IMG/VR virus record: IMGVR_UViG_3300028888_000057 | Reading direction: 5' to 3' (one strand) | Source: a virus | Taxonomy: Duplodnaviria > Caudoviricetes | DNA length: 64,000 nucleotides | Part shown: positions 1-16,226 of the stretch, piece after piece | Layout of the letters: the number at the start of each line of letters is the position of its first letter | How positions within the stretch are numbered: the stretch's first letter is position 1 | Translations under genes and position numbers: made by a program | The notes under the pieces: model-generated | Database searches by the model: none | The model's input: the letters and a program-made list of their open reading frames with translations, nothing else | Told to the model about the DNA's origin: nothing

Positions 1-14
1 CTAATAACACTCCA

Positions 15-932
15 TTGCTTGGTCGTTACATTGTGAACTTTAACAGGATCTACAAATCAAAACAGGAATCGCTAACGAAGGCATCAAGAAAAGGTATCAC
101 AGACAACCACATTATTCCGAAATGGGGTGAAGTACCGCTAGACAAAATCAAGACTTCAGACTTGCAACTTTGGTTCAATGAATTAGAAGACAAAGGATAC
201 TCTCATGAGACTCTGCTTAAAATCAAAAACAACATGTCACCAGTTCTTGATGCGGCCGTAGAAGATGGATACATAACACGAAATCCATTTAAATCATCGC
301 GGCTAAAAATAGGAGGAAAAGAAACTATCCATCATAAAGCCATTCCAAAAGAAAGAATGGAATTCATTAGAAGCAGCATTCCGTTTATTGAAGATGACAG
401 ACAACGAAATATGATTACATTGCTGGTGAATACAGGAATGAGAATGGAAGAAGTTCTCGGAGTGAAATGGGAAGATTTTGACTTAGAAAATGGTTGGATC
501 TACGTTCAGCGAGCAGTAGTTCATCCATCTCGAAATATGCCAGAAGTGAAAATTCCCAAAACTGCTGCCAGCAAGAGGAAGTTACCACTTACAAAAACAA
601 TAAAAGAACAATTGGGAAAAATTGAGAAAACCGGATTCATTCTGCACGGAGAAAAAAATGATCAACCACTAACCTATACGGAGGCAAGATACTGTTTCAA
701 CAAGCTTAGAAAAAATCTTGGGTTTGACGGATACACAGCTCATGACTTTAGAGATACGTGTGCAACAGAATGGAGAGAGGCTGGAATTCCGATGGACATC
801 ATCGCTCGACTGCTTGGACATTCGAAATCTGACACGACTGAGAACAGATATGTGAAGTACAGAGCAGAAGTTTTTGAAGGTGTTCGAGCCGTAATGGAAG
901 ACCTAAACAGAACAGAAAATGGAACAAAATGA
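15..932 (+). CDS. int: Tyrosine recombinase / phage integrase (probably 5'-truncated by window)
   Basis: TGMRxxE, HDFR, LGHS and C-terminal Tyr (RYVKY); SAM-like N-part; frame open back to base 3. Confidence 0.95.
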   Translation: MLGRYIVNFNRIYKSKQESLTKASRKGITDNHIIPKWGEVPLDKIKTSDLQLWFNELEDKGYSHETLLKIKNNMSPVLDAAVEDGYITRNPFKSSRLKIGGKETIHHKAIPKERMEFIRSSIPFIEDDRQRNMITLLVNTGMRMEEVLGVKWEDFDLENGWIYVQRAVVHPSRNMPEVKIPKTAASKRKLPLTKTIKEQLGKIEKTGFILHGEKNDQPLTYTEARYCFNKLRKNLGFDGYTAHDFRDTCATEWREAGIPMDIIARLLGHSKSDTTENRYVKYRAEVFEGVRAVMEDLNRTENGTK

Positions 933-967
933 AAAGTATGAGGTAATCTCAAAACGAGGTTAAGCTC

Positions 968-1019
968 AAAAAAGCAAAAAGAAAAACCCCACGGCCATTG
1001 ATGCAACGTCCACGGGGCT
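968..1019 (-). terminator. Rho-independent terminator downstream of the tRNA 3' half
   Basis: On - strand CCCCGUGG pairs with CCGUGGGG (two G-U pairs, possible only on this strand), followed by UUUUUCUUUUUGCUUUUUU. Confidence 0.75.
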
Positions 1020-1021
1020 TC

Positions 1022-1068
1022 TGGAGCTGATAGCCAGATTCGAACTGGCGACCTCATCCTTACCAAGG
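1022..1068 (-). other. Putative attP core: 3' half of tRNA-Thr(GGT)
   Basis: - strand CCTTGGTAAGGATGAGGTCGCCAGTTCGAATCTGGCTATCAGCTCCA has anticodon loop GGT, T-arm and CCA, but no 5' acceptor strand or D-arm; lies 90 bp from the integrase. Confidence 0.88.
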
Positions 1069-1269
1069 AATAAAACATCAAATTTAGTATGAGATAATCG
1101 AAGAACGTCTATTTGATATCATGGTTTTTAAAATTCAGAAGATGTTGCATTTTTCAAACATCTTTTGAATGTTGAAAATTATCTCATGTCTTTTAGAAAA
1201 GAATATTTTGCAATGGAGAATTAACATGAGCAATAATAGCTTGGAACGATATGATTTGGAGGAGAAATA

Positions 1270-1488
1270 ATGAGAGAAATTATGATTAATTTACTTCCAT
1301 GTCCTTTCTGCGGCGATCCAGCCGCGTTCTACGTAACTGACAATGGCGGAATTTGCGTTAAATGCACATCTTGTAACTGTCAAACTCCATACACCGACGA
1401 TGATACGACTCGACAATGGTCTGGTAGTTCAGCTATCGATGTGGTTACCGAAATATGGAACACAAGAATAGGAAAAGAAGGAATATAA
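1270..1488 (+). CDS. Lar-family (restriction alleviation-like) Zn-finger protein
   Basis: LLPCPFCG...CTSC...WNTR pattern; GGAGG RBS. Confidence 0.75.
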   Translation: MREIMINLLPCPFCGDPAAFYVTDNGGICVKCTSCNCQTPYTDDDTTRQWSGSSAIDVVTEIWNTRIGKEGI

Positions 1489-1489
1489 A

Positions 1490-1837
1490 ATGGTAGATAA
1501 AGATAAAGTTATCAAAGCTCTAACTATCTGTACTCGGCCTGGATCAAGAGGATGCTTCTATGAAACAGGAGAATGTCCTTATGAATCTGGTGGCTGTAGA
1601 ATTCAAATGGAAACTGATGCTCTTCAACTTATTAAAGAAATGGACTCAACACTTGGAATAAAATGTACAGTTGACGGTATAACGTTTACATCAACAGGAG
1701 AAGCCAAACATGGAGAAAAACGCGGCTCCGTGTTAGGCAAAACATATATGAAAGATCAAATCGAGAAAGCTCTGCTCTATAACGGATTACTAACCAAAGA
1801 AATTCGTGAGATTATCAATTCAATCCCAATTAATTGA
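1490..1837 (+). CDS. Cys-rich hypothetical phage protein
   Basis: DKDKVIKAL...C..CPY..C..DALQLIKE N-module shared with neighbours. Confidence 0.75.
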   Translation: MVDKDKVIKALTICTRPGSRGCFYETGECPYESGGCRIQMETDALQLIKEMDSTLGIKCTVDGITFTSTGEAKHGEKRGSVLGKTYMKDQIEKALLYNGLLTKEIREIINSIPIN

Positions 1838-1848
1838 AGGTGATTCAT

Positions 1849-1938
1849 ATGACAAGTATCATTAATTTACTTCTGATTGTCGGCTTGATCTTGTGGATCT
1901 TATTTCAAGCTGCAGACATGAATAATAAATTGAAATAA
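1849..1938 (+). CDS. 29-aa membrane peptide
   Basis: AAGGTGA RBS; single hydrophobic helix; below ORF-track cutoff. Confidence 0.5.
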   Translation: MTSIINLLLIVGLILWILFQAADMNNKLK

Positions 1939-1953
1939 AGGAGTATATATAAT

Positions 1954-2109
1954 ATGAAGGAATATAGCGTGATTATTAAAGGCGACCGGATAAGTTCCGG
2001 CTGCGTTATTGTGAAAGCAATTGATGAACACTCGGCCGCTAATTTCATTAATGATAATTTTCCTGATGATGTTGAAATATTAACTATAACTGAATACAGA
2101 AAGCTATGA
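1954..2109 (+). CDS. 51-aa hypothetical protein
   Basis: AAGGAG RBS; fills gap in operon. Confidence 0.6.
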   Translation: MKEYSVIIKGDRISSGCVIVKAIDEHSAANFINDNFPDDVEILTITEYRKL

Positions 2110-2202
2110 GGAGCTAAGCATGGCCTATGGAATGGTATTGGTGAATATTAATTATTATCGTGTGTATATGGATCTACAAGACGTCTTAACAAGGAGAGTA
2201 AT

Positions 2203-2481
2203 ATGAGATCGTATCCGGTACCGGCAAAGAAAGCAAATCGCATAAATCGTAAATGGCAAAAATTGAAGCCAAAGGCTGAACGTTGTCCCAATTGCGGCTG
2301 CCGCATAGTTGGACTGAACGATTGCTTCATGTATAAATGGAAAAGATTCTTTATTGACTGTGAAGAGTGTCATTGGTGCGGCCGGAGAAAACCCACAATC
2401 AGAATGGCCATTAAAGCATGGAATAAAGATGGAGCAAAGATGTATCTTGATATGCTGCGCAGAGTTTATGGAGGAAAATGA
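2203..2481 (+). CDS. Lar-like Zn-finger protein
   Basis: CPNCG...CEECH...AIKAWN; AAGGAG RBS. Confidence 0.7.
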   Translation: MRSYPVPAKKANRINRKWQKLKPKAERCPNCGCRIVGLNDCFMYKWKRFFIDCEECHWCGRRKPTIRMAIKAWNKDGAKMYLDMLRRVYGGK

Positions 2482-2482
2482 A

Positions 2483-2704
2483 ATGACAGATAAAGAACGT
2501 ATTATTCAGGTAATTACAGATCAGGTTGCTTTGTGCGGTCCAGATCCGGAAAAAGATCGTTGGTGGGTAACATTCACGGCCGATGATGCAAAGATGATTC
2601 GAGACATGCTTGAGAACGAGTATTGGCATGGATACAGAAGAGGAAGATCAGACGAAGCCGGACTGAGAGAGGGAACGATCATGCAAACGTTCAGCCCAGA
2701 CTAA
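2483..2704 (+). CDS. Hypothetical protein
   Basis: Start moved to ATG 2483 behind GGAGG; MTDKERII N-terminus like neighbours. Confidence 0.7.
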   Translation: MTDKERIIQVITDQVALCGPDPEKDRWWVTFTADDAKMIRDMLENEYWHGYRRGRSDEAGLREGTIMQTFSPD

Positions 2705-2775
2705 TTTACAGAAATAAGATAGTCGGCTGGGAACCATATTGTCCAACATAAGTATAACTTAAAGGCAGTGATTAA

Positions 2776-3000
2776 ATGGTTGTAACAGGAAATGGAATAG
2801 AAACAAAAGTATGGATTCTTCCCTATGAAAAATCATCTATTGATAAAAACATGTATGTTCAAAGCATGGAAAAGGCAATCGTTGTGACGTCCGTGCCAAA
2901 CTATGAAGAAAAATTAATTCGGTTAGAATTACCAGATTGTACTACTGTCGTCTTAAAAGCAGATCAATTGATAACGGCAATTAAGAAATGTGTTCTGTAA
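2776..3000 (+). CDS. Hypothetical protein
   Basis: ORF in operon orientation. Confidence 0.65.
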   Translation: MVVTGNGIETKVWILPYEKSSIDKNMYVQSMEKAIVVTSVPNYEEKLIRLELPDCTTVVLKADQLITAIKKCVL

Positions 3001-3045
3001 TTTAAAGGTGATAATGACGCTATAGTGAAGCAAAGGGTGTGTAAA

Positions 3046-3342
3046 ATGGACAGAGAGAAAGTTATCAAAGAATTTGAACATATATTGAATGAAGCAAGAG
3101 GAGATTATCTTGACTTTGCTGATATAACAGTTGATTTCGGGGATGAAATTCTTGCCCTGCTGAAAGAGCAGGAAGAGGTTGTTAAACAATGGAAAATGGA
3201 GATTGCAGGCAATCAACTTGTCCATGCTCCGAACGATTCTCATGAGGCTATGTCATTGGATGAACATCTTGAAAACGAGTATAAGCGTGGTATTTGGGAT
3301 GGATTGCAAATAGCATGGAACATCATTTCGGAAGGTCGGTGA
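3046..3342 (+). CDS. Modular hypothetical protein (DREKVI...LLKEQE family)
   Basis: Shared N-module and KEQE motif. Confidence 0.75.
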   Translation: MDREKVIKEFEHILNEARGDYLDFADITVDFGDEILALLKEQEEVVKQWKMEIAGNQLVHAPNDSHEAMSLDEHLENEYKRGIWDGLQIAWNIISEGR

Positions 3343-3347
3343 GGTGA

Positions 3348-3506
3348 ATGAATGGAAAAGATTTAATAGGCAAAACGATTAAAAAAATAGACATCGACGG
3401 ATACGGCGTTGAGATACGTTTCACTGACGGAACAGAATTTGTGTATAACGCTTCAGATGCAGGATATTCTAGTTGGGATATATCGGAAGGTGGCGAAGCG
3501 GAATGA
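3348..3506 (+). CDS. 52-aa hypothetical protein
   Basis: GAGGTGA RBS; ATGA overlap with next gene. Confidence 0.65.
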   Translation: MNGKDLIGKTIKKIDIDGYGVEIRFTDGTEFVYNASDAGYSSWDISEGGEAE

Positions 3507-3817
3507 TTGATAAAAAGCAAGTCATGTTTGACATTGAACGTTGTATTTGCCATGTGCCGGATGCGTGTAAAGATTGCTCTAAATATAAAGGAATTGACGG
3601 ACTCCGATGCATGGAGGAACTAATGGTTGACGCTCATACTCTGCTGAAAGAGCAAGAAGCAGTTGAGCCAACATTTAAGCAAGATAACGATGGCATTTTT
3701 GTCTGGGCGTGTGGTTCATGCGGTGCGTACATGTATCACATCTACGATGGAATTGACAAGGCAAAGGAATACGCAAAATACTGTCGTCAATGCGGCAGAA
3801 AGGTGAAGTGGGAATGA
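3503..3817 (+). CDS. Modular Zn-ribbon protein
   Basis: CKDC module, [15 protein letters not shown]...[12 protein letters not shown]. Confidence 0.8.
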
Positions 3818-4473
3818 AATACAATGGAAGCAATCTGGAAAAAGTTCTTAACTCGCACAAACGTTGGTTGGATAAATCCGAAGGATGGTCGGAAGAAGAT
3901 AGAGCTGATCTGAGTAGAGCCAATCTGTATGAAGTCTATCTGATTGGAGCCGATCTGAGAGAAGCCGATTTGAGAGAAGCAGATCTAATAAAAGCAAATC
4001 TGAGAGGAGCAGACCTGAGAGGAGCTGACCTGAGAGGAGCAGATCTATCTGGAGCAGATCTTGGAGAAGCAGATCTAACTGGAGCAAATCTGACAGGAGC
4101 TCATCTAAGAAGAGCGAAAAATGTCCCATATATTCCTCTGGCATGTCCGGACACAGGAGCGTTCGTGGCATGGAAAAAATGCGAATCGAAAGACGGAATA
4201 GTAATCGTCAAACTGCTGATACCGGAAGATGCCAGACGGAACAGCGGAACAGGCCGAAAATGTAGAGCAGACAGGGCCGTTGTACTTGAAATCCAGACAG
4301 TTGACGGCGATGTGCTTGAAGGAGAAATTGCATGGTCAATGTATAATAATTATTTTACCTATGAGGTTGGCAAAACGGTGACACCAAGCAAACCATTTTG
4401 CGAGGACAGGTTTGATGAATATTCCAGCGGGATTCATTTTTTCATCAATCGACAGGACGCCGTTGAGTTTTGA
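3814..4473 (+). CDS. Pentapeptide-repeat protein with DUF5758-like C-domain
   Basis: A(D/N)LxG repeats; [24 protein letters not shown]. Confidence 0.9.
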
Positions 4474-4493
4474 GAATAGGTGGTAAAGTGGGA

Positions 4494-4955
4494 ATGAATA
4501 TATTGATGTCAATCAAACCGGAATGGTGCAAGAAGATCATTTACGGAGAAAAAACCATTGAGGTCAGAAAAACGAAACCCGAACAGATTTCAGCACCTTT
4601 TAAAGTTTATGTTTACGCTTCGTTTGGAGGAGAAAACTGGTTTTCCAAAGGAAAACAAAAATCAGGTCATGTGATTGGTGTGTTCACCTGCGATAGAATT
4701 GAACGATATGATATACCCTATCCAGCGTGGCAGAAAGACTTGAACCCAGAGTTGAAAGAAAAATCCTGTCTTTCATACATGCAACTTCACCGTTACGCAG
4801 GAAAGCAAGGATATGTGTATGGATGGGATCTACGAGATTTTGAAAATTGGGATGTTCCGCTGTCCGTGCGTGAGTTTATTGATAGCAAAGGGAATACTTT
4901 TAATGGGCCGCCACAATCATGGGCATATGCAGTTAGGTTGGTGAAACGGGAATGA
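4494..4955 (+). CDS. ASCH/PUA-like domain protein
   Basis: ILMSIKPEW..IxxGEKTIEVRKT...PPQSW.Y. Confidence 0.85.
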   Translation: MNILMSIKPEWCKKIIYGEKTIEVRKTKPEQISAPFKVYVYASFGGENWFSKGKQKSGHVIGVFTCDRIERYDIPYPAWQKDLNPELKEKSCLSYMQLHRYAGKQGYVYGWDLRDFENWDVPLSVREFIDSKGNTFNGPPQSWAYAVRLVKRE

Positions 4956-5188
4956 CAAATCAAGAAGCAATTGAAACGATAGAAGCAAATTATCCACCGC
5001 AAAATTATTCGATGTTGAGAGAAGCGTTGGATATGGCTATTGTCAAGCTGAAAGAACAGGAAGCGGTACCGGTTATACAGCGCGAAATTGCACATATGCT
5101 TTTCTGGTGCTGCGGTTCGTGCGGCGTGGCTATAACAGATGGAGATAAGTTCTGCAGGAATTGTGGAATGGCGGTGAAGTGGAAATGA
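4952..5188 (+). CDS. Modular Zn-ribbon protein
   Basis: LKEQEAV, CGSCG...FCRNCGMAVKWK. Confidence 0.8.
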   Translation: MTNQEAIETIEANYPPQNYSMLREALDMAIVKLKEQEAVPVIQREIAHMLFWCCGSCGVAITDGDKFCRNCGMAVKWK

Positions 5189-5457
5189 CAGGCAAAGACT
5201 TACGGTATTCATTGGTGTTAAAAGGTATAAAACCTTCTGAATTGGCAGAACATATTGATGTTTCGAGAAGTATGGTTTCAAAGTGGCTTTCTGGCACATC
5301 TAAAATTTCAATCAAGCAAGAAAATGCCATCATACAATTCCTTGGGAATGTTACGGACGCTGAAGCAAAAGATAGACGAAGAATTGAAGAAATAGTATTA
5401 ACTATGACAAAAGAAGAAAAAATCAATGTTATTCAATTTATATTAGGAACACTTTAA
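5185..5457 (+). CDS. XRE-family HTH protein
   Basis: ELAEHIDVSRSMVSKWLSG. Confidence 0.8.
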   Translation: MTGKDLRYSLVLKGIKPSELAEHIDVSRSMVSKWLSGTSKISIKQENAIIQFLGNVTDAEAKDRRRIEEIVLTMTKEEKINVIQFILGTL

Positions 5458-5468
5458 GGCGATAAAGT

Positions 5469-5777
5469 GTGGTGAATAATTTAACAATGGAGATTTTAGC
5501 ACTTTGGATTTTAATCGGTGGTTTTATAGGTGGCTTTGTACAAATACTGTTTGCATTTGACGATGATGAACTGTCTTTTAAAACAGCATTTTATTATGCG
5601 ACGGTGTTCTATGAAAACAATGAAGACAAACTTAATTCTGCTGGATTAACTATAGTTATTGTTATAATGTCGTTATTGCTTTTACCTGGTTATGTTTTGA
5701 TATTTTTCATAGCGTGCTTAGATAAAGTGTTTTGCAAATTGTGGGAAGTATATAAATACGTATTTAGAAAAGAATAG
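5469..5777 (+). CDS. Membrane protein (2 TM)
   Basis: Two hydrophobic stretches. Confidence 0.7.
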   Translation: MVNNLTMEILALWILIGGFIGGFVQILFAFDDDELSFKTAFYYATVFYENNEDKLNSAGLTIVIVIMSLLLLPGYVLIFFIACLDKVFCKLWEVYKYVFRKE

Positions 5778-5807
5778 AGGTAGTGTGAAGAATGGTAGTG
5801 AAGTGGG

Positions 5808-6053
5808 ATGACTGACAGGGAGAAGATCATTAAAGAAATGATTGTATTACGCAATTGGCTTTTGCATATGGAAGAGTTCGATGCTCACGGAAACGGTGAT
5901 ATGTATCATGAGTTTGGTTGTACCATTCACAGTGCTTTGGAACTGCTGAAAAAGCAAGAAGCAGAATTGCTCCAACAAGAAGCAGAACTTGATATCCTTC
6001 GGAATATCTACAAGCAAGAAAGCCCAAACAAACAGGTGGTGAAGTGGGAATGA
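5808..6053 (+). CDS. Modular hypothetical protein
   Basis: MTDREKII...LLKKQEA...VVKWE. Confidence 0.75.
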   Translation: MTDREKIIKEMIVLRNWLLHMEEFDAHGNGDMYHEFGCTIHSALELLKKQEAELLQQEAELDILRNIYKQESPNKQVVKWE

Positions 6054-6370
6054 TAATAATAGATATTGATTTGCCAGAAAGGTGCGGCGAGTGCCCGTGC
6101 TTTCATGCGGCGTTTCCGATGCACTGTCAACTGATTAAACCGCCGGACAAAAACAAGCAATTAGCGGCTCCGTATGGTTTACCAAGACCTGACTGGTGTC
6201 CGCTGAAAGAGCAGGAAGCAGTGAAACCGAGAGTTGATGCTGATGGGTCATTTAACTGCGGAAATTGTGGTGAACTAGTTGGATTTGATGAACATCCATT
6301 TACATATAAAGTACCCAAAATAGCTATGAAATTTTGCTGTGAGTGTGGAAAGCCGGTAAAATGGGAATGA
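6050..6370 (+). CDS. Modular double Zn-finger protein
   Basis: CGECPC..RPDWCPLKEQEAV, CGNCG..CCECGKPVKWE. Confidence 0.8.
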   Translation: MIIIDIDLPERCGECPCFHAAFPMHCQLIKPPDKNKQLAAPYGLPRPDWCPLKEQEAVKPRVDADGSFNCGNCGELVGFDEHPFTYKVPKIAMKFCCECGKPVKWE

Positions 6371-6561
6371 CTGACAAAAATACTGCAGGTTTACGAAAAC
6401 ATTGCGGAGTCGATCCGATAATAGTTGAAGAATATTATAACGGTACGTATAAGTTGGTTCGAATCAAATGCAGTAAGTGTTGCGCTCAAACAGGAGCAAA
6501 ACGGTTTTTGAAAGATGCAATACGAGAATGGGAAAATCCATTAACCGTACATCTGAATTAG
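6367..6561 (+). CDS. Degenerate Lar-like protein
   Basis: HCG...CSKC...DAIREWE. Confidence 0.6.
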   Translation: MTDKNTAGLRKHCGVDPIIVEEYYNGTYKLVRIKCSKCCAQTGAKRFLKDAIREWENPLTVHLN

Positions 6562-6625
6562 AAGAGAGTGGTGCAAATCTTCACCTACTCAATAACGAAG
6601 TAAATAATAAGGTGGTAAAGTGGAA

Positions 6626-6832
6626 ATGAAAGAGCGATTCTGGTATATATGTCCATTTTGCGGTTCCAATGTTTCAAACGGATTATGTTATGGATGTGGA
6701 AATAATAATCTTCCGGATATGTCGTTTGAAAACAAATCCGATTTTAAATTTATAGGTTTTTATACATATAAGAATAATGTGCAAAGATACATTTCTATGT
6801 ATTTATGCAGACAGGAGGCAAAGAGGACATGA
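6626..6832 (+). CDS. Zn-ribbon protein
   Basis: CPFCG..CYGCG; starts in junction motif. Confidence 0.6.
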   Translation: MKERFWYICPFCGSNVSNGLCYGCGNNNLPDMSFENKSDFKFIGFYTYKNNVQRYISMYLCRQEAKRT

Positions 6833-7095
6833 ACGACAGAGAGAAAATTATCAGTGCCATTGAAAGAGCAAAAACGCAATCAAAGAAAAATGCACTGGAT
6901 AGCATAATTGTTCCATTCAAGGAAGCGGATATGATCATTGCCCTGCTTAAAGAGCAGGAAACGGTTATTCGGTGCAAGGATTGCATATATTGGCATGAAT
7001 CCGCAACAAATCACGGATACGGAGATTGCGGACAGGCGAACGGAATTGCATTGAAAGATGAGAATTGGTACTGCGCTGATAGGAAAAGACGTTGA
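6829..7095 (+). CDS. Modular Cys-rich protein
   Basis: MNDREKII...LLKEQE, VIRCKDCIYW..WYCAD. Confidence 0.8.
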   Translation: MNDREKIISAIERAKTQSKKNALDSIIVPFKEADMIIALLKEQETVIRCKDCIYWHESATNHGYGDCGQANGIALKDENWYCADRKRR

Positions 7096-7100
7096 ATTGA

Positions 7101-7247
7101 ATGAATGCCACGATTTTTAAATGGATTGTTGTTTATGATGACGGCAGGACAGAAGAAAAATAGGGAGAAAGTCTGTATGATTTTGCAGACAATTTGATAG
7201 AAGTGCCTGTTGCGATTGTTCGCAACGGATGGCAAAGAGGTAATTAA
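7101..7247 (+). pseudogene. Possible small gene interrupted by TAG at 7161
   Basis: Frame fills the intergenic gap exactly apart from one amber codon. Confidence 0.4.
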
Positions 7248-7249
7248 TA

Positions 7250-7540
7250 ATGACGATTGAAGAATGGGCAAAAGACTTCAAATCATATGTAAACGCATTA
7301 AGTATGCCGAGAGATGATTATAAAGGCATCATGGAATACATTGACGATGTACTTGCCATGCCGGAAGCGCAAGAACACTCAGGCGTGTGGGAGTTGATTA
7401 CAGAAGATAAGTACCGTTGTTCAGAGTGTAAGAACGTAACTTATGTCGATGAGTGCATGAACGAACCTCAATATCTGTATTGTCCGTATTGTGGATGTAA
7501 GATGACTTTTGAAGGAATTTGGGTGAAGCGGGATGTATGA
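7250..7540 (+). CDS. Modular Zn-ribbon protein
   Basis: CSEC...YCPYCG; ends in junction motif. Confidence 0.75.
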   Translation: MTIEEWAKDFKSYVNALSMPRDDYKGIMEYIDDVLAMPEAQEHSGVWELITEDKYRCSECKNVTYVDECMNEPQYLYCPYCGCKMTFEGIWVKRDV

Positions 7541-7862
7541 CCCAGAGATGAGAAAAGACTGTCCAATGCGTAGAAACCTTGGAAACTGTTCTCCGGTCGG
7601 CGGTTTCTGCGTGGATGCTGTAAGTGATGAAATCTGTGAGGCTGTACATAACGCTTATGATCATGAGTTTTACAACGCGTTGAAAACACTGAAAGAGCAG
7701 AGTGCGGTTGAACCATATATGGATTATGACGGACATGATGTATGGAGGTGTGGAAAATGCGGATCAACAATATTTCACATTTATCATAATCAATCAGACG
7801 AAGACTGGAAGAGTTATGCAAAGTTTTGCAGACAATGCGGAAGGCGAGTAAAATGGAAATGA
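7533..7862 (+). CDS. Modular Zn-ribbon protein
   Basis: LKEQSAVEP, CGKCG..FCRQCGRRVKWK; C-module paralogous to 3503..3817. Confidence 0.8.
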   Translation: MYDPEMRKDCPMRRNLGNCSPVGGFCVDAVSDEICEAVHNAYDHEFYNALKTLKEQSAVEPYMDYDGHDVWRCGKCGSTIFHIYHNQSDEDWKSYAKFCRQCGRRVKWK

Positions 7863-8047
7863 TGGTATTGATATTGATAGTGATTGCGTTAAACTTGCCA
7901 GCTTATGCTTGGGTGTATTTTGAGTGGCGTAAAGATTGCAAAGAAATCGGAAAAGATGATCTTGCGGTTTCTCTTAAAGAACGCATGAAAGCGCTTTTCT
8001 TATATCTTACTCTGCCGTGTTTATTGGGGCTTGCAACAAGAAAATAA
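7859..8047 (+). CDS. Small membrane protein
   Basis: Two hydrophobic segments; ATGA overlap. Confidence 0.65.
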   Translation: MMVLILIVIALNLPAYAWVYFEWRKDCKEIGKDDLAVSLKERMKALFLYLTLPCLLGLATRK

Positions 8048-8071
8048 ATATTTCATAGGAGTTGAAGTGGA

Positions 8072-8404
8072 TTGACAATTCAGCGAATGCTTGAATTACT
8101 GGAGATTGAACATGAATGCATGCTTCGTGGAGCGCATGATGATTGTGACCGGAATTGTTGTGACTGTGAACTGGTACAGGACGATTACGAACTGCATGAA
8201 ATGTATACTGATGTGATTTCACTGTTAAAAAAACAGGAGCCATTAGAGCCAAAGAAGGTAAAAATTGATCAGGCAGGTCCTTTATATCACCGTTGTTACT
8301 GCTCAAAATGTGGGCATTATGTTGGGAACATGATAAATAACAAGGTTGCAGATGTGTATGAGAATTATTGTAGCAACTGTGGACATGAGGTGAAGTGGAA
8401 ATGA
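8072..8404 (+). CDS. Modular Zn-ribbon protein
   Basis: CDRNCCDC, LLKKQEP, CSKCG..YCSNCGHEVKWK. Confidence 0.8.
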   Translation: MTIQRMLELLEIEHECMLRGAHDDCDRNCCDCELVQDDYELHEMYTDVISLLKKQEPLEPKKVKIDQAGPLYHRCYCSKCGHYVGNMINNKVADVYENYCSNCGHEVKWK

Positions 8405-8511
8405 AATGGGTATTTTGTAAAGAATGTAAACACTGGTTCAAAACATATCCGACAACTGTTATTCGGTGTCCATTTTGCGGTGCTGATGTAACTGAATGGG
8501 ACTGGCGGTGA
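8401..8511 (+). CDS. 36-aa Zn-ribbon peptide
   Basis: CKEC...CPFCG; ATGA overlap. Confidence 0.65.
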   Translation: MKWVFCKECKHWFKTYPTTVIRCPFCGADVTEWDWR

Positions 8512-8517
8512 AATGAA

Positions 8518-8727
8518 ATGGTTAAAACATTTTGTGACAGGTGCGGTAAAGAGATAACAAAAGAATATGGATGGATCACACATAAGACGCTATATGCAAG
8601 TATAAGACTTATTCCCGGAAAGAAGCGTGACGAATGGTCTAAGCAAGCAGATCTATACATATGTCCGGAATGCGAAGATAGTTATATTCACTGGTTTATG
8701 AATCCAGAAACGGAAGACGGGCGGTGA
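8518..8727 (+). CDS. Zn-finger protein
   Basis: FCDRCGKEI...ICPEC. Confidence 0.75.
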   Translation: MVKTFCDRCGKEITKEYGWITHKTLYASIRLIPGKKRDEWSKQADLYICPECEDSYIHWFMNPETEDGR

Positions 8728-8734
8728 AGTTAAA

Positions 8735-8914
8735 TTGATAGTAATAACAACTATGAATTCGTTCCCAGAACATTGTTATGAATATCCATGTCATGACGGT
8801 GAGAGCGGGTACTGTCAAGCCGATAAAGAACAACGATATTCGGATTATTATAGGCCATTTTGGTGCCCATTAATTCAATATAAAGATTGTATTGACTGTG
8901 TCAATATGAACTAG
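8735..8914 (+). CDS. Cys-rich protein related to N-module of 6050..6370
   Basis: TTG start in junction motif; PEHCYEYPC...RPFWCPL. Confidence 0.6.
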   Translation: MIVITTMNSFPEHCYEYPCHDGESGYCQADKEQRYSDYYRPFWCPLIQYKDCIDCVNMN

Positions 8915-8944
8915 TCAACTGGAGAATATGAGGAGGAAAACAAC

Positions 8945-9403
8945 ATGAAGCGGACTAATATTTTTAAAAGATTTTTTGAGTGGATCAAGAAACTTTTCCA
9001 AAGGAAATTGAAATCCACAGAACAGGTTTATTGGGTAAATCATATCTTTGATGAATATGTTAATGCTTCTCAGAAATCCGTTGGTATGTATGCTAACGTT
9101 CATGGATTTGAAGGACTGAACGATGACGGCAGCTGGACTTACTGGGTCGGTATTGATATCCGGTTCATCGGCATTCGCGTTGCTGACATTGTAATCCGGT
9201 GCAAGAACAAGAGTACTTATGATCGTTGGATTTACCAGGCAACACATGATTTGAACTCCATGCCGAGCGCTGTTCGAAACGATCCTAATCTTTACTGCCG
9301 TTTTGGTGACGATGTTGAAATTGATTTCAAGTTCCGCTGGGGTGACGAAGAGAAGCATTTCAACGTAAGGTTCAGTGGTGATAGATATGCCGAAGAAAGG
9401 TAA
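8945..9403 (+). CDS. Hypothetical protein
   Basis: AGGAGG RBS; 152 aa. Confidence 0.8.
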   Translation: MKRTNIFKRFFEWIKKLFQRKLKSTEQVYWVNHIFDEYVNASQKSVGMYANVHGFEGLNDDGSWTYWVGIDIRFIGIRVADIVIRCKNKSTYDRWIYQATHDLNSMPSAVRNDPNLYCRFGDDVEIDFKFRWGDEEKHFNVRFSGDRYAEER

Positions 9404-9415
9404 TTCGAAAACAAA

Positions 9416-9682
9416 ATGAAATTCATGTTAAACGGATGCGATATATCTTTTATAGCGGAAGCTCCAGATGATATTACCTTAAAAGAACTGTTAAAGCAAA
9501 CAGATAGAATTCAGCCACAATGGTGTGCATGCGGAATAAGATCGTTATCGCCAAACGAAGAAAAATTGGACACAGAAATATTCATAGAAAAAGATTCTGT
9601 GAGATTAGCAAATGAAGATGTATCCGCATACATAAGAGATGACGGAAACTGGTTCAAAACTAAAATTGGAGAAAATTCTTAA
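9416..9682 (+). CDS. Hypothetical protein
   Basis: ORF in operon. Confidence 0.65.
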   Translation: MKFMLNGCDISFIAEAPDDITLKELLKQTDRIQPQWCACGIRSLSPNEEKLDTEIFIEKDSVRLANEDVSAYIRDDGNWFKTKIGENS

Positions 9683-9704
9683 GCTGAATGGAAGACAAGA
9701 CAAT

Positions 9705-9887
9705 ATGAAAATTAAAGGAAGTGCTTTTCTTGAACATCCGATAATGGATGAATGTATTGAAGCTGCGTATAAAATCGTAATGGAACTACAAGAAAGAAGA
9801 ATTCTAAAAGTGAAAATCAAGCGCAAAGAAGGCGAGGAGTCGTTTATTCAGTGGGAGATTGATACAGATAGTATTGAGCAAAGTTAA
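9705..9887 (+). CDS. Hypothetical protein
   Basis: Non-overlapping start at ATG 9705. Confidence 0.55.
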   Translation: MKIKGSAFLEHPIMDECIEAAYKIVMELQERRILKVKIKRKEGEESFIQWEIDTDSIEQS

Positions 9888-9906
9888 TGAGGATAAAAAA
9901 GATAAT

Positions 9907-10149
9907 ATGAAGATAATTATCAACGGCAGTCCCTACGATTCTGTAATCGAAGCGATTGTAAAAAAGACGAGATCGTTCACGGATACATACATCGTTCGAA
10001 TCAAAACAACCGTACTTGGCGAAGAAACAGTTCTTATGATTCCGAATGGAATATGGTATGATTTTGATACAGATTGGTATGAAGGCGGAGAAATCGAATT
10101 GCTTGGATTCATTCGTCTTCAGGACGTTGAAATTCCTTTGCTAACATAA
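9907..10149 (+). CDS. Hypothetical protein (DWYEG motif)
   Basis: GAGGA RBS; broken paralog at 12677. Confidence 0.7.
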   Translation: MKIIINGSPYDSVIEAIVKKTRSFTDTYIVRIKTTVLGEETVLMIPNGIWYDFDTDWYEGGEIELLGFIRLQDVEIPLLT

Positions 10150-10172
10150 ATTTAACAAAAGGAAATACGAAA

Positions 10173-10301
10173 ATGGACATCAAATACAAATGGTACATAT
10201 TTAAATGCTGGCTGTTCGGTCATAAACACAGTTGTTGTAATGACGTAAGAAAGAGATGCTCAAAATGCAATGATGCAGCTCAAAAGGAGGTGATGTCATG
10301 A
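10173..10301 (+). CDS. 42-aa Cys/His peptide (DUF1660-like)
   Basis: CWLFGHK...CSKC. Confidence 0.55.
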   Translation: MDIKYKWYIFKCWLFGHKHSCCNDVRKRCSKCNDAAQKEVMS

Positions 10302-10390
10302 AGGACTGTGTAGACGCATACAACCGGATGCTCTCTATTCCTCAGTAGCATCGCCCCTGATGGGGCGTTTAAGAAAAATGAGGTAATACC

Positions 10391-10561
10391 ATGAACCAAA
10401 GAGAAGAAGTGCCACTAGAACCATACGAATTACCTGATTGTTGTGCGGCCTGCATTCATTGTCATGAATTTGGTAGTCCAAAGGATTTAAAATATATTTG
10501 TGATTTGAATTTATTGGACAATAATCGAATCGAGTGTATGTATGCAGAAGATGAATTTTGA
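10391..10561 (+). CDS. 56-aa Cys-rich protein
   Basis: GAGGT RBS; CCAACIHC...C...C. Confidence 0.55.
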   Translation: MNQREEVPLEPYELPDCCAACIHCHEFGSPKDLKYICDLNLLDNNRIECMYAEDEF

Positions 10562-10738
10562 TTTTAAAAAATGGGGTGATGCTATGCATGGAGTAACGTA
10601 CGATAGTACTGGATTAACACAGTAGCGTTGCCCCGGAAACAATGATACATTTGTGCTACCTTTAGAAGGAATAATTACTATTGTTTGTTTTTGAAAGCAG
10701 TTATTCAAATTGCTGCATAGATAATGACGGGAGGAAAA

Positions 10739-10975
10739 ATGACGAAGTTTGAAAAACTTGCAAAAAAGCTACACGACACCTTTGGCTATGATTTGACTGA
10801 TTTCAAACGAACGTATGCCGGAAGCAAGATGAGGAAAGCAGGAGCTTTTGTATGGGAAGCTAAACTTGGTCACTACACGGTTGGAAGCACATGGACTGTA
10901 ACAGAGTTGCTAAAAGCAAAGACAATCTTGCAAGAGTACTGTGGATTTTGCGAAATCGAACTGTTCCCGAACTAA
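10739..10975 (+). CDS. Hypothetical protein
   Basis: GGAGG RBS before ATG 10739. Confidence 0.75.
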   Translation: MTKFEKLAKKLHDTFGYDLTDFKRTYAGSKMRKAGAFVWEAKLGHYTVGSTWTVTELLKAKTILQEYCGFCEIELFPN

Positions 10976-11010
10976 TTAAAACTGCTGTTTAAAGAAGGAT
11001 GGAATAAGTT

Positions 11011-11142
11011 ATGGATGAGTATAGAGAAAAAGTTTTAAAAGCTATACGTGACTATGAAAAACAACTTGATCATGTTGACCAATACGAGATTGTGAATGCA
11101 ATCGGAGAGCTGTATGAAATAATCAGAGCGATACTCACTTAA
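11011..11142 (+). CDS. 43-aa helical peptide
   Basis: AAGGA RBS. Confidence 0.5.
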   Translation: MDEYREKVLKAIRDYEKQLDHVDQYEIVNAIGELYEIIRAILT

Positions 11143-11162
11143 ACAACATGAGGTGAATAGTC

Positions 11163-11384
11163 ATGAAATATATATCTGTAGACGATTTGCAAGCATTCTG
11201 CAGAGATGAAGAAGCAAAAGACTTTGCCAGAATGCTTCAGTATACGGCTGAGTGCATCATGTATTATCAAAGAGTATCATCTTTTCCAGATTGTAACACT
11301 TGCAGTGAAAAGGATTGTAAATACAGACCGGGCTGGGGTGAACAAGTTCGGATTAACTGTCCATTATGGAAGAGTAAGGAATAA
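11163..11384 (+). CDS. Cys-rich hypothetical protein
   Basis: GAGGTGA RBS; DCNTC..C..RINCPLW. Confidence 0.75.
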   Translation: MKYISVDDLQAFCRDEEAKDFARMLQYTAECIMYYQRVSSFPDCNTCSEKDCKYRPGWGEQVRINCPLWKSKE

Positions 11385-11443
11385 ATTGATGTATAAATGA
11401 CGAGAATTAACTTAAATAACTAAAAGTGGACGGAGATTTGTAT

Positions 11444-11596
11444 ATGGAAACGGCGCATCCAAAGGGGTGGAACAGACTCATGGTTGAGTATGACAATGTT
11501 GGATTTTTTCATGGCTACTATGTCAGGAAAGGATACATGACTCTGTTTCGTATCCCGAACTGGCTTGGACGGGTTCTAACTTCAATAAAGCTTTAA
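11444..11596 (+). CDS. 50-aa hypothetical protein
   Basis: GGAG RBS; stop overlaps junction motif. Confidence 0.55.
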   Translation: METAHPKGWNRLMVEYDNVGFFHGYYVRKGYMTLFRIPNWLGRVLTSIKL

Positions 11597-11605
11597 ATTA
11601 CCGTA

Positions 11606-11692
11606 TTGTTGTCGTACAAGTATAGGACTCCGCCGGGGTGTAGGCTTGCCGATAGCCGGGGGCAATGTCAGGGGCAGTGCCTGACCAGCAAA
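11606..11692 (+). ncRNA. tRNA-like structured RNA with atypical anticodon arm
   Basis: UUGUUG/CAGCAA closing stem, D-arm-like UCGUACAAGUAUAGGAC, GUCAGG-GGCAGUG-CCUGAC T-arm-like hairpin; GC-rich island between genes. Confidence 0.5.
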
Positions 11693-11712
11693 TATTATTT
11701 ATGGTGAGGACT

Positions 11713-11871
11713 ATGACAATAAAAGAAGCAAAAACAACTTTGAATAGTTTGCCGCTGAGAATTTACTCGGACGAAGAAATTATAAAAGCATATGAGCGAT
11801 TGAAAAAAGCAAATTTGTTGACAAAGAAAATATTATTGAATTTAGTTGACAGATATCCGCCCAAATGCTAA
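11713..11871 (+). CDS. 52-aa hypothetical protein
   Basis: GGTGAGGA RBS before ATG 11713. Confidence 0.55.
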   Translation: MTIKEAKTTLNSLPLRIYSDEEIIKAYERLKKANLLTKKILLNLVDRYPPKC

Positions 11872-11906
11872 TTTTTCAATTTGCTGTATAACTATGGGTG
11901 AACTGA

Positions 11907-12056
11907 ATGAAACATAGCAAAGTGATAGAAATAACATATGAACAGTTTAAAAGACTTCCAGATCGATTCAAATGGGTTATTTGCTATGAAAAAACAAACA
12001 TCAAAGTTATAAATAGCAAAAGCGACATTCGATACGTTAGTCCAAAAGCATTATAG
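11907..12056 (+). CDS. 49-aa hypothetical protein
   Basis: GGGTGA RBS; bracketed by junction motifs. Confidence 0.5.
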   Translation: MKHSKVIEITYEQFKRLPDRFKWVICYEKTNIKVINSKSDIRYVSPKAL

Positions 12057-12094
12057 CTGCGTCAATTTGCAGTTTTACAAAAAAGGAGAGAATA

Positions 12095-12646
12095 ATGAGC
12101 CAAGTAATAACTGCTCCAAATTCGGAAAAACCAATCTTTATATCACTATTTCTCGCAGGTGGAATTACGAACTGTAAAGATTGGCAAAATGACGTTATTA
12201 AGGAACTCGTTTACGATGATGTTTCGATATTTAATCCAAGACAAGAACATTTTGATATATCAAATAAAAGTGCATCCTATGAACAGATTGCGTGGGAATA
12301 CGAACGTCTAGAACAGATGGACATTTTTTCTATGTACTTTTGCAATAGCGATAGCGATCAGCCAATATGCATGTACGAGCTTGGAAGAAACATTGTTCGC
12401 ATGCAAAACAGATTTCCTGTCGACTGGCAGGAACGAATTATTGTTGGTGTAGAAGATGGGTATCGTCGAAAACATGATGTTATTATTCAAATGAAATTAT
12501 GCGCGCCTTCGATACTCGTAAACGATCGCGCTACTCCTGAAACTCATGCTCAAAGAATTCAAAAAGTAATTAGAAAACTAAATCCTCCTGTTGTTTATAA
12601 TGATTACGAAAGAATGTCTTATTTGAGATCGTGCTCCAGCATATAA
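12095..12646 (+). CDS. Nucleoside 2-deoxyribosyltransferase-like protein
   Basis: FLAGGIT.C.DWQ, FNPR, QIAWE, PICMYELG. Confidence 0.8.
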   Translation: MSQVITAPNSEKPIFISLFLAGGITNCKDWQNDVIKELVYDDVSIFNPRQEHFDISNKSASYEQIAWEYERLEQMDIFSMYFCNSDSDQPICMYELGRNIVRMQNRFPVDWQERIIVGVEDGYRRKHDVIIQMKLCAPSILVNDRATPETHAQRIQKVIRKLNPPVVYNDYERMSYLRSCSSI

Positions 12647-12676
12647 TGGAAGCCAAGCAGAAAAAGGAGATAAAAT

Positions 12677-12971
12677 ATGAAAATATATTGAAATATAGAT
12701 TCTTCGCCTTACAAATCTGTATCAGAAACATTGTTCAAAAAAAAGAGATTACTACGGAGATAGTATTGTTGTTCAACTTCGTCTTAGAAGGAGACCTTCC
12801 AGCCCTATAGAAGAACACACAGTTCTTTATTTAAGAACTGGATACGGTGATGATTACGAATGGGAGTATGACTGGTGGGAAGGTGAACAAGAAGTCGAAC
12901 TTATTGCAGCAGCGCCTATATCCAAAATAAAATTAAGCGAGGAATTTTGTTTTACAAATGAAAAATGCTGA
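12677..12971 (+). pseudogene. Broken paralog of 9907..10149
   Basis: AAGGAG RBS; TGA at codon 5; frameshift near A8 run 12737-12744; SPY.SV and DWWEG..VELI match the paralog. Confidence 0.65.
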
Positions 12972-13239
12972 TTTTAAGTTGTCTCGCTATGATGAGGCAA
13001 CGAAAGATTTCTGGTTCGAAATATCCGGAGAAAGTCAGAAAGAATTAACCAATAAATATTTTGAACAAGGAATGGTAGAGGTATCTCATGTTGTATATTC
13101 TCTTGGTGATAATAGCTGGGCTATCCAACGAGAGTTTATCTTTAATACTAACATGATGACACCAAAAGATAAAGATATTGAAGATTTTCTAAAAAATCTT
13201 GCAGAAGAAGAAAACCTCAAACTGAACAAAGCTTCTTAA
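12958..13239 (+). CDS. Hypothetical protein
   Basis: GAGGA RBS. Confidence 0.7.
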   Translation: MKNADFKLSRYDEATKDFWFEISGESQKELTNKYFEQGMVEVSHVVYSLGDNSWAIQREFIFNTNMMTPKDKDIEDFLKNLAEEENLKLNKAS

Positions 13240-13250
13240 AGGAGTTATAC

Positions 13251-13619
13251 ATGCCGAAAGAATTAGAACTACTTCAAGAATGGAAGCAACGATTAGGACT
13301 TCAGAACTGGCAGATAACGTTAACCGACAATGTTGATCCAGAAGATATGACAGTCAAAGACGCAATGGGCTGCACAAGCTATCAGGAAGTCATGAGGACA
13401 GCTTCTATTCAGATTATTAATCCTGAAAAGATCGAAGAAACACTCAGACCATTTGATTATGAAGAGACGCTTGTGCATGAATTGCTTCATTTAAAACTTG
13501 GCCTGCTTGAACGAGGTACTGACTGGGACAACAAACTTCAATTGAGAGTTCTTCATATGATTATTGACGATCTTGCTCGCGCTTTAGTCGACGCAAAAAG
13601 AAATGGAGGATCCAAATGA
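13251..13619 (+). CDS. Zincin-like (HExxH) metallopeptidase-domain protein
   Basis: ETLVHELLHL. Confidence 0.7.
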   Translation: MPKELELLQEWKQRLGLQNWQITLTDNVDPEDMTVKDAMGCTSYQEVMRTASIQIINPEKIEETLRPFDYEETLVHELLHLKLGLLERGTDWDNKLQLRVLHMIIDDLARALVDAKRNGGSK

Positions 13620-13837
13620 GGAAAAATATAAGTGTTATCAGATGTGACTGCTGTGGAAAAAGAATTGATCAGGGGAAATATCATGTTATTGAAACCAAAT
13701 ATAATCTCAGTAACTGTGTTCATCAGTATGAAATATGCGATGAATGTATGACAACTTTTCTTAAAGGATTGGAATATAAAAATAAAATGGAAAAAATATG
13801 GGACCATATATCGGAAGAAAGATTGATCGAGGAATGA
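13616..13837 (+). CDS. Zn-finger protein
   Basis: CDCCGK...ICDEC; similar to 8518..8727. Confidence 0.7.
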   Translation: MRKNISVIRCDCCGKRIDQGKYHVIETKYNLSNCVHQYEICDECMTTFLKGLEYKNKMEKIWDHISEERLIEE

Positions 13838-13849
13838 AAGGAGAGCAAA

Positions 13850-14431
13850 ATGAAAAATAAATATAAGATAGTTATATTGATAGCAATCTTGGTTTTATGC
13901 ATATTTGTATTCTCCGGCTGCGAAAGCAAAGGAAATTCAATAGCGTATAGAAAGGCATCTGGTACAGTCGAAGACAGCCGCTCGCAGGCTGAGGTGGCAG
14001 GTCGTCTTGCAGATAATCAGCGTACACCAACAGATATTAACTATTCTTTGGAAAGATACAATCTTATCCGCAGAACATATTGGGTAAACGGACAAAGAGA
14101 AAAAGCTAATATGCTTGTATGTCCTGTTGAAAAACCTCTTGGATACATAGTAATCTTTGCTGGAAATACCGTGGCTGGAAAATTCGTTGTAGATGGAAAA
14201 GTCAGTAGCTTAAACAGTTTTCTCACACCTTCGAGTATCGATACATATTATGGACAGGGCGCAGTAATTACAACAGAAATGGCCGATGTAGATGGAAGTT
14301 ACGGAGAAAACGATAACGGTATATTCTTCTTTACTCCAAACGGGAACTATATTGAGTGGACAGGAGAGTATCTGTACTCTGACATTCCATTTGAAATTGA
14401 CAATCCGATCGTGAAGGTGATGTCAGAATGA
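13850..14431 (+). CDS. Lipoprotein
   Basis: Basic N-terminus, hydrophobic core, lipobox FSGC. Confidence 0.8.
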   Translation: MKNKYKIVILIAILVLCIFVFSGCESKGNSIAYRKASGTVEDSRSQAEVAGRLADNQRTPTDINYSLERYNLIRRTYWVNGQREKANMLVCPVEKPLGYIVIFAGNTVAGKFVVDGKVSSLNSFLTPSSIDTYYGQGAVITTEMADVDGSYGENDNGIFFFTPNGNYIEWTGEYLYSDIPFEIDNPIVKVMSE

Positions 14432-14826: not shown

Positions 14827-14835
14827 AGGACGAAT

Positions 14836-15863: not shown

Positions 15864-15902
15864 GATATCACTACCGACAACGAATAAGAAAGGAAGGTCA
15901 TT

Positions 15903-16184: not shown

Positions 16185-16226
16185 TTAACGCGTAGGTTTA
16201 TTGTAGTTGTCGGTTTATGATATAAA

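Follow-up and report, generated by a model that had tools for sequence, protein, structure and literature searches.

In the 'linker' version of the modular theory of Susskind and Botstein, short conserved sequences at module borders were reportedly proposed as sites where modules lacking other relatedness undergo homologous exchange, and conserved boundary sequences have been reported in lambdoid phages. Here, we analyzed a 64,000-nucleotide (nt) stretch of viral DNA (IMG/VR record IMGVR_UViG_3300028888_000057; Duplodnaviria, Caudoviricetes; hereafter the window), in which an array of small genes carries a recurring gene-junction motif, designated J (GGnGGTRAARTGGRAATGA, its linker also written as GGnGGTGAAGTGGGAATGA), and a recurring in-gene hinge, designated K (CTGAAAGAGCAGGAAGC, encoding LLKEQEA in frame, approximately 17–25 nt). 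Our comparisons revealed that both J and K are conserved at the nucleotide level and that exchanged modules preferentially begin and end at them. As in the linker theory, the same short sequence flanks unrelated modules, mosaic joints lie inside it, and its conservation at the nucleotide level extends beyond coding or Shine–Dalgarno (SD) need; the present case differs in offering one explicit sequence in approximately 17 copies within one genome, together with breakpoint enrichment and in-gene linkers.

The nearest described system is the promoter-early stem-loop (PeSL) of T4-type phages, which combines a sigma-70 promoter with a terminator stem-loop (Arbiol et al. 2010, PMC2839356; Comeau et al. 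2014, PMC4122927), making each gene its own transcription unit, and for which mini-circles were demonstrated experimentally (PMC2839356; PMC4122927). Like PeSLs, J is a short repeated motif placed before small non-essential genes and ORFans; it is concentrated in a hyperplastic region, its 3' end supplies the SD and start codon of the following gene, and close relatives differ by insertions, deletions, and replacements with breakpoints at the motif. However, J contains neither the sigma-70 −35/−10 promoter nor the stable stem-loop terminator or attenuator (it folds at 0 to −0.2 kcal/mol), and since these define a PeSL, J is not one; it is instead a purely translational SD/spacer/stop–start linker that is coding in many cases, and its partner is an intragenic, in-frame hinge at which protein domains are shuffled. 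A further comparison is offered by relaxed (homeologous) recombination by phage Rad52-like recombinases. Martinsohn et al. (2008, PMC2327257) and De Paepe et al. (2014, PMC3945230) describe the homology-driven mosaics that it generates, and according to the latter such exchange tolerates short or diverged homology and leaves homology traces at the borders of exchanged fragments. The mosaicism at J and K fits homology-driven exchange as portrayed there (PMC3945230), with two differences: the homology patches here measure only approximately 17–26 nt, and no RecT, ERF, Rad52, Sak4, YqaJ, or RecA gene is detectable in complete relatives.

The junction motif and its conservation

The array (2776–8914, + strand) comprises 21 small same-strand genes, apparently one operon, in an integrase-bearing, siphophage-like genome. 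Eight belong to a family sharing the LLKEQE hinge, while the rest encode a pentapeptide-repeat protein fused to DUF5758, an ASCH protein, a helix-turn-helix (HTH) protein, two membrane proteins, and small zinc-ribbon proteins; the initial annotation of this DNA had likewise recognized unrelated genes between the motif copies. A search with the 19-mer GGNGGTRAARTGGRAATGA, allowing up to three mismatches, returned 11 + strand matches within 3799–8738 plus one unrelated − strand match, against 0.24 expected, and 12 matches were reached in 0 of 100 shuffles. A gap-tolerant strict J pattern gave 10 + strand matches, all in 3803–8390, and 0 on the − strand (0.25 expected), and repeat-finding without a preset motif recovered the same families (D1, D6, and D7). 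With the weaker copies (3332, 3488, 5794, 7518, 8058, and 8503) included, J occupies 16–17 of the 21 junctions between the 3046 start and the 8945 start, so that the earlier estimate of about 18 copies was slightly generous but fair. The copies are given below with the ends of homology blocks shared with relatives (L and G numbers) and the loose contig ends of sequencing runs (X numbers) recorded at them.

3332–3351, + strand: weak J copy GGTCGGTGAGGTGAATGAATG; internal TGA is the upstream stop (tail EGR)
3488–3506, + strand: weak J copy, one base shorter, read EGGEAE-stop, with ATGA overlap
3799–3817, + strand: J encoding RKVKWE-stop of zinc-ribbon gene 3503–3817; start region of the pentapeptide gene; L024/G2 block ends at 3817
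4479–4497, + strand: J untranslated, 20 nt past the pentapeptide stop; start region of the ASCH gene
4937–4955, + strand: J encoding the LVKRE-stop C-terminus of the unrelated ASCH protein; run X1 loose end at 4949
5170–5188, + strand: J encoding AVKWK-stop; start region of the HTH gene; blocks start at 5162 (L024) and 5184 (G2)
5778–5811, + strand: tandem pair of J-like copies, untranslated, GGTAGTGTGAAGAATG then GGTAGTGAAGTGGGATGA, with ATG alone between
6035–6053, + strand: J, exact match, encoding VVKWE-stop
6352–6370, + strand: J encoding PVKWE-stop
6611–6629, + strand: J, exact match, untranslated, 64 nt past the upstream stop
7518–7536, + strand: weak J TGGGTGAAGCGGGATG, encoding WVKRDV-stop of gene 7250–7540; L019 and L017 blocks start at 7522/7524
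7844–7862, + strand: J encoding RVKWK-stop; L018 and L021 blocks end at 7862/7863
8058–8075, + strand: weak J, untranslated, TTG start; G1/G2/L024 blocks start at 8063–8073
8386–8404, + strand: J encoding EVKWK-stop
8503–8521, + strand: weak J; internal TGA is the upstream stop (tail WR); G1 block 8506–8730 (90% identity) starts here
8720–8738, + strand: J with TTG start; internal TGA is the upstream stop (tail GR); G1 block ends at 8730, the next starts at 8736

As had been claimed, each copy ends at the next start codon, with GGTGA placed 7 nt ahead of the ATG and with a stop/start ATGA overlap at 9 of the 21 junctions. The three proposed ways of reading the motif were also recovered: the copies encoding VKWE or VKWK end at 3817, 5188, 6053, 6370, 7862, and 8404; those at four junctions (4479, 5794, 6611, and 8058) are left untranslated; and of the two read otherwise, the one at 3332 has the stop of the preceding gene inside it (EGR-TGA), while the one at 3488 is shorter by a single base and is translated as EGGEAE. 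At three junctions (tails EGR, WR, and GR), the TGA within GGTGA is the stop of the upstream gene. Judged from its letters, J thus appears to have the layout of a coupling junction, with a functional SD distance and with stop and start overlapping or adjacent. Ordinary ATGA coupling shares with it the overlap (9 of 21 junctions) and an SD inside the upstream gene; the difference is that the spacer is fixed here even when untranslated, whereas ordinary coupled junctions do not share a spacer.

The extent of this conservation distinguishes J from a mere ribosome site. Over positions −20 to −1, the J junctions hold 12.7 bits of information compared with 4.8 bits for 35 other starts of the window, whose maximum in 200 subsamples of 16 was 7.3 bits, and the 8-base spacer alone holds 7.4 bits at J compared with 1.2 bits at other starts. 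The window's other genes use AAAGGAG-N7-9-ATG, and J differs from this ordinary ribosome site of the phage. In two complete relatives of approximately 150 kb with direct terminal repeats (G001, 150,578 bp; G002, 148,117 bp), J is confined to one 5–8 kb array, which holds 6 of the 9 strict matches in G001 (16074–20623) and 10 of the 11 in G002 (6921–14376). The claim that nucleotide-level conservation reaches past the SD therefore stands, and J proved to be more than an ordinary SD, spacer, and ATG recurring throughout the genome. Relatives L023, L024, and L025 carry the same junction ahead of dozens of genes for which the window offers no homolog, and at 80 IMG/VR loci containing the hinge 17-mer, there were 90 strict J matches in the orientation of the genes and 3 in the opposite one. 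The exact J 19-mer was found at 16 IMG/VR loci with one copy each, which is approximately chance level and uninformative; spacing variants of J in relatives escape this fixed pattern.

In non-redundant contexts of untranslated J spacers (n = 27, from approximately 45 contigs), the seven successive letters were counted as A25 G24 T24 G23 G21 G19 A26, with ATG-A following in 26 of the 27 copies with a 7-nt spacer. Since untranslated copies still keep the 7-base spacer, the conservation is at the nucleotide level. Where VKW is encoded, valine is written as GTG in 20 and GTA in 4 cases and as GTT or GTC in 0 of 24 (GTT/GTC background 0.59), and lysine as AAG in 19 of 24. Motif-coded tails are found on unrelated proteins (LVKRE on ASCH, WVKRDV on the product of gene 7250, and EGR on many proteins of relatives), and in relatives whose protein runs beyond VKW, the ATG of the motif nevertheless remains the start of the following gene.

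Many array genes also share their opening words right after J, namely ATGAC(T/N)GACAGRGAGAAR (M-T/N-D-R-E-K-I/V-I; window 3049–3078, 5811–5830, and 6835–6864), and genes of relatives likewise open alike after J (GGGATGACTGACAG); for those genes, the homology patch thus extends to approximately 32 nt. The tandem pair at 5778–5811, where runs X4 and X5 each have four contigs with loose ends at 5798, is possibly the scar of an emptied or deleted cassette. At some junctions, relatives carry 33-residue mini-ORFs (open reading frames) and doubled ATGAATGA (L024 8398–8499, L025 12296–12314).

J is purine-rich, 19–26 nt long, and contains no promoter hexamer pair; in line with this, promoter-like sites within 900–12500 numbered 41 against 37.7 expected, none of them associated with J, and terminator-like sites numbered 6 against 6.5. 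Four J copies fold, as single strands, at 0 to −0.2 kcal/mol and show no dyad symmetry, and the SD part, GGnGGTGA, matches GGAGGTGA at 7 of 8 positions. A resemblance of J to Chi (GGTGGTG) and the presence of GAAGCGG in K were considered and left aside.

Taken alone, such a motif could be conserved only for expression or by descent. In that case, J would be an optimised coupling site or, as the initial annotation had offered as an alternative, the binding site of a common translational regulator comparable to T4 RegA, the conservation of K would reflect a feature of the mRNA or the protein, and random illegitimate recombination would produce joints that selection then sorts to gene and domain borders. 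The composition of J, which holds SD, start, and stop and is unstructured like good initiation regions, speaks for this account, as does its presence at all array genes and at no gene outside, which suits class-specific regulation. The predicted position of K at a helix end on a domain boundary and the lack of a phage recombinase among the families searched point in the same direction. What bears against it comes from the hinge and from the borders of the exchanged blocks.

The in-gene hinge and the borders of exchanged modules

Five paralogs (3503, 4952, 6050, 7533, and 8072) consist of a variable N-domain, the hinge LLKEQEAV.P, two CxxC pairs, and a VKWE or VKWK end, whereas genes 5808, 3046, and 6829 have the hinge alone in common with them. 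K was located at the following positions.

3160–3181, + strand: K CTGAAAGAGCAGGAAGAGGTT (LLKEQEEV) in gene 3046–3342; many loose ends at 3173–3181
3644–3665, + strand: K in gene 3503–3817, at the end of helix 3 in the model, with the zinc-ribbon domain next; L024/G2 block starts at 3634
5048–5069, + strand: K in gene 4952–5188
5946–5967, + strand: K (LLKKQEAE) in gene 5808–6053; L024/G2 block starts at 5949
6203–6224, + strand: K in gene 6050–6370; X5 contig resumes at 6203
6946–6967, + strand: K (LLKEQETV) in gene 6829–7095, whose C-domain is of the type RCKDC...WYCAD
7689–7710, + strand: K (LKEQSAV) in gene 7533–7862; N-half (7522–7699) shared with L019/L017, C-half (7689–7863) with L018/L021

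Over 36 copies of the hinge, the codons CTG (29 of 36; background 0.31), AAA (32 of 35), GAG (27 of 31; background 0.29), and CAG (28 of 32) predominate, and K is conserved as DNA, synonymous sites included. In the AlphaFold model of the 3503 protein (mean predicted local distance difference test score, pLDDT, 83.7), the hinge is predicted to end a helix (residues 33–50) that is followed by a beta zinc-ribbon at 57–104. A small hairpin with a 6-bp stem, CCTGCT/AGCAGG, can be folded from K plus the codon before it (at 3150–3190, −7.5 kcal/mol and z −3.1). The exact hinge 17-mer occurs in at least 117 IMG/VR stretches, a raw count that is inflated: of 80 stretches examined, approximately 45 are hinge-family genes with several kinds of C-domain, while the remainder encode two unrelated, highly conserved proteins outside the hinge family (L051, L054, L063, and approximately 30 other loci). 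One of these carriers is a tape-measure-like protein of approximately 1080 residues (...YLSERLKEQEAF...) from isolate-derived viral contigs, and the other is a small protein ending in ...EEWLKEQEALQALPVAA. Some relatives have two LLKEQE hinges within one protein with an extra module between them (P0010; L095 321–414), looking as if a K-to-K unit had been inserted.

Aligned with its relatives, the window shows short homologies in shuffled order (against G2 and L024) with edges at J or K, in contrast to the flanking genes, which are collinear at 87% over 1.7 kb. The blocks include 8506–8730 (J to J), 5162–5458, 3634–3817 (K to J), 7522–7699 (J to K), and 7689–7863 (K to J). Among the unique ends of high-scoring segment pairs (HSPs) between window and relatives, 11 of 26 fall inside J or K intervals, which make up 10.3% of the region (P = 2.4e-5). 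An all-against-all comparison of approximately 49 independent loci (HSPs of at least 90% identity and at least 150 nt; unique internal ends) placed 22 of 40 block ends at J or K against a 4% background, and the exchanged modules were of the types J-J, J-K, K-J, and K-K. Counted per site, block edges occur at 21 of 79 J starts, 13 of 165 other starts, and 17 of 45 K hinges; within arrays and with near-duplicates removed, they occur at 16 of 50 J starts and 3 of 36 motif-less starts (P = 0.009). Breakpoints are therefore related to the motif, which supports the initial annotation's view of the linker as a crossover point for gene exchange.

Individual comparisons illustrate these borders. Between L024 and L025, which are 95–98% identical, one replacement has its left end inside J and its right end exactly at K, and a second lies between the conserved coding patches RCKDCKH and WYCADGE. 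A contig of run X5, from another study, is collinear with the window up to 6053, continues with 110 different letters, and resumes at 6203, thereby replacing 6054–6202 from J to K, and another X5 contig fuses 7250–7349 to 3158–3459 at K and carries, before 7250, a J that the window lacks. Loose ends at 5798, 6053, 6202, 8518, and 8731 recur in several runs. Contig joints with sides of 20–29 nt (e.g. 3181 to 3798 and 3818 to 5791) are motif repeats and were left uncounted, and the gap in cover of X1 contigs over 5776–8583 carries no evidential weight. At the protein level, 23 homologs of the 3503 product share 85–97% identity with it from residues 41–48 to the end while their N-domains are unrelated; the best full-length homolog is 68% identical.

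Several features of these borders speak against conservation for expression and random joining. Edges inside arrays favor J starts (16 of 50) over motif-less starts (3 of 36); K lies inside genes, and yet it is an edge in 17 of 45 cases, and its synonymous sites are conserved without a nearby start codon. Moreover, the joints are precise and in register within the shared 17–26 nt, pair after pair, as homology-guided exchange produces, whereas random joining plus selection need not do so. We regard the expression account as the main rival, though a rather unlikely one.

Since all data are metagenomic assemblies, the mosaic pattern might also reflect chimeric contigs joined at short repeats. One 107,602-bp IMG/VR contig is a warning in this respect: a 2.4-kb stretch of array is present in it twice at 100% identity (L019 1–2435 and L020 7290–9724), one of the copies abuts the end of the contig, and the duplicated segment stops approximately 10 nt past a K hinge; this may be a genuine duplication at K or a product of misassembly. 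For the pattern as a whole, however, an artefact is unlikely because J and K (17–29 nt) are shorter than the assemblers' words (31-mers in the Logan contigs) and because the joints recur across studies. The junction types recur over independent samples, studies, and assemblers, including the two complete genomes with terminal repeats, and dozens of distinct hinge chimeras are present in protein databases. We consider this origin of the mosaics extremely improbable.

The array is also reminiscent of an integron or shufflon, in which a dedicated site-specific system, driven by the tyrosine recombinase at 15–932 or by another enzyme, would move cassettes at J. Unrelated, promoterless single genes lie in the same orientation between copies of one oriented motif, 1.8 kb downstream of the tyrosine recombinase gene, and the pair at 5778–5811 may be an emptied junction. 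Yet the recombinase scores only 25.3 bits on TIGR02249 (cut-off 265) and 19 bits on NF011946 (cut-off 435), is thus not IntI, and looks like an ordinary phage integrase, and J, without dyad symmetry and with a fold at 0 kcal/mol, is unlike the folded imperfect palindrome of attC; an integron reading was rejected on these grounds. Exchanges also occur at the in-gene K and at the patches RCKDCKH and WYCADGE, which fits general homology-dependent exchange, and circles were not seen among the contigs, the one type of data at hand. A dedicated site-specific system is, in our judgment, very unlikely.

A proposed route of module exchange

We propose that J is probably a translational-coupling linker that doubles, together with K, as a short homology patch for module exchange. 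J would combine an extended SD (GGnGGTGA), a fixed, purine-rich, and unstructured 7-base spacer, and an ATGA start/stop overlap, and would supply TGA stops in two reading frames, so that an incoming gene terminates beside the following start; in this manner, it may chain small accessory genes into an operon-like array. It would act as a homology patch because approximately 19–26 nt hardly vary from junction to junction or among many related phages, with K, the in-frame hinge of approximately 17–25 nt, as a second patch. Co-infecting or resident relatives would exchange modules at J and K, be they whole genes (J-J), N-terminal domains (J-K), C-terminal zinc-ribbon domains (K-J), or K-K units. 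Host RecA, a phage protein that has escaped recognition, or template switching are candidate agents. From the sequences, we infer that J mediates translational coupling, that modules are exchanged by homology-dependent crossovers inside J and K, and that J is a crossover substrate rather than only the place where viable recombinants end. Two points are thereby added to the initial annotation: six copies of J double as the coding 3' end of the zinc-ribbon family, and the linker acts with an in-gene hinge, with the consequence that half-genes are exchanged as well as whole genes.

Several observations weigh against this proposal. Within the zinc-ribbon paralog family, the V and W of VKW never vary, even where the protein continues past VKW, so that six J copies of the window also have a protein-level reason for their conservation; paralogy is, however, not the whole explanation, in view of the tails on unrelated proteins, the untranslated spacers, and the choice of valine and lysine codons. 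The motif-less control junctions are few and come largely from one pair of close relatives. J-to-J circles or motif-to-motif deletions within one population were not found in the assembled contigs, the only material available for the search. Pfam models for RecT, ERF, AAA_24/Sak4, YqaJ, Rad52, and RecA had no match in three relatives, of which two are complete and one is 74% complete. Finally, with J at the borders of genes and K at those of domains, selection for intact products would also concentrate surviving breakpoints there.

A bolder form of the linker-and-patch proposal would treat J and K as two 'grammar' sites of an evolved combinatorial system, kept letter-perfect by active reassortment of N-domains, zinc-ribbon C-domains, and accessory genes within phage populations. 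A phage nuclease or annealase that has escaped recognition, or template switching promoted by the K hairpin, might drive it. We hold this form to be quite unlikely; if true, such a system would diversify small effector proteins, possibly for counter-defence, with a purpose comparable to that of shufflons or diversity-generating retroelements.

Surroundings of the array and its bearing on phage mosaicism

The window has a GC content of 40%. Its tyrosine integrase gene (15–932, + strand), whose best PHROG match is a generic phage integrase, is followed by approximately 19 kb of small + strand genes, beyond which the − strand carries lysis genes, Dit, and giant tail genes, including a 4773-residue ORF. 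No function for the hinge family was found in Pfam and PHROGs, no match to the 3503 model (pLDDT 83.7) in a Foldseek search of the PDB, and nothing in Rfam over 1–20000. The pentapeptide-repeat protein fused to DUF5758 (3814–4473) matches MfpA/Qnr-type DNA-mimic models weakly, far under their cut-offs, and may be a DNA mimic; together with a Lar-like restriction-alleviation protein at 1270–1488, it suggests that the region carries counter-defence genes. Further downstream (10705–12076), a second repeat, TCAAWTTGCTGTWTA, has four copies with up to two mismatches between small genes (6 in the whole window against 1.4 expected) and may be another junction element.

Runs containing this stretch are sheep-gut metagenomes, and a 149,320-bp contig carries a protein identical to the 3503 gene product. 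A metagenome scan with the 8945 protein led to three loci, one of them G001. Among cultured phages, neither a close DNA match to the array nor a match to the 3503 or 6829 protein was found. Scanning contigs of metagenome-assembled genomes with the J 19-mer gave mostly chance matches in high-GC genomes; the relevant ones, two ruminant Clostridia contigs, are a weak hint of the host. The clade bearing J and K consists of uncultured ruminant-gut phages with genomes of roughly 100–150 kb, whose hosts are probably Clostridia.

The array exemplifies, in nature, the 'linker' route to phage mosaicism that was proposed long ago. Our literature search found no paper on the LKEQE hinge or on SD/stop–start linkers as exchange points. 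The array bears on an open question, namely whether phage mosaics arise by homologous exchange at linkers or by random illegitimate joining followed by selection, and it offers an unusually clean natural test bed: a 19-base linker repeated approximately 17 times, a second linker inside genes, and dozens of phages with reshuffled modules, with joints in the linkers even between nearly identical genomes. Relative to the PeSL, the concept is widened here on two counts: the junction is purely translational where PeSL cassettes are transcriptional, and the units exchanged include protein domains in addition to genes. For annotation, the C-terminal VKWE, EGR, and LVKRE tails on unrelated proteins are here by-products of the linker. 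The arrangement also suggests a design rule for shuffling operon genes and domains, in which a fixed SD/spacer/stop–start adaptor is combined with an in-frame hinge.

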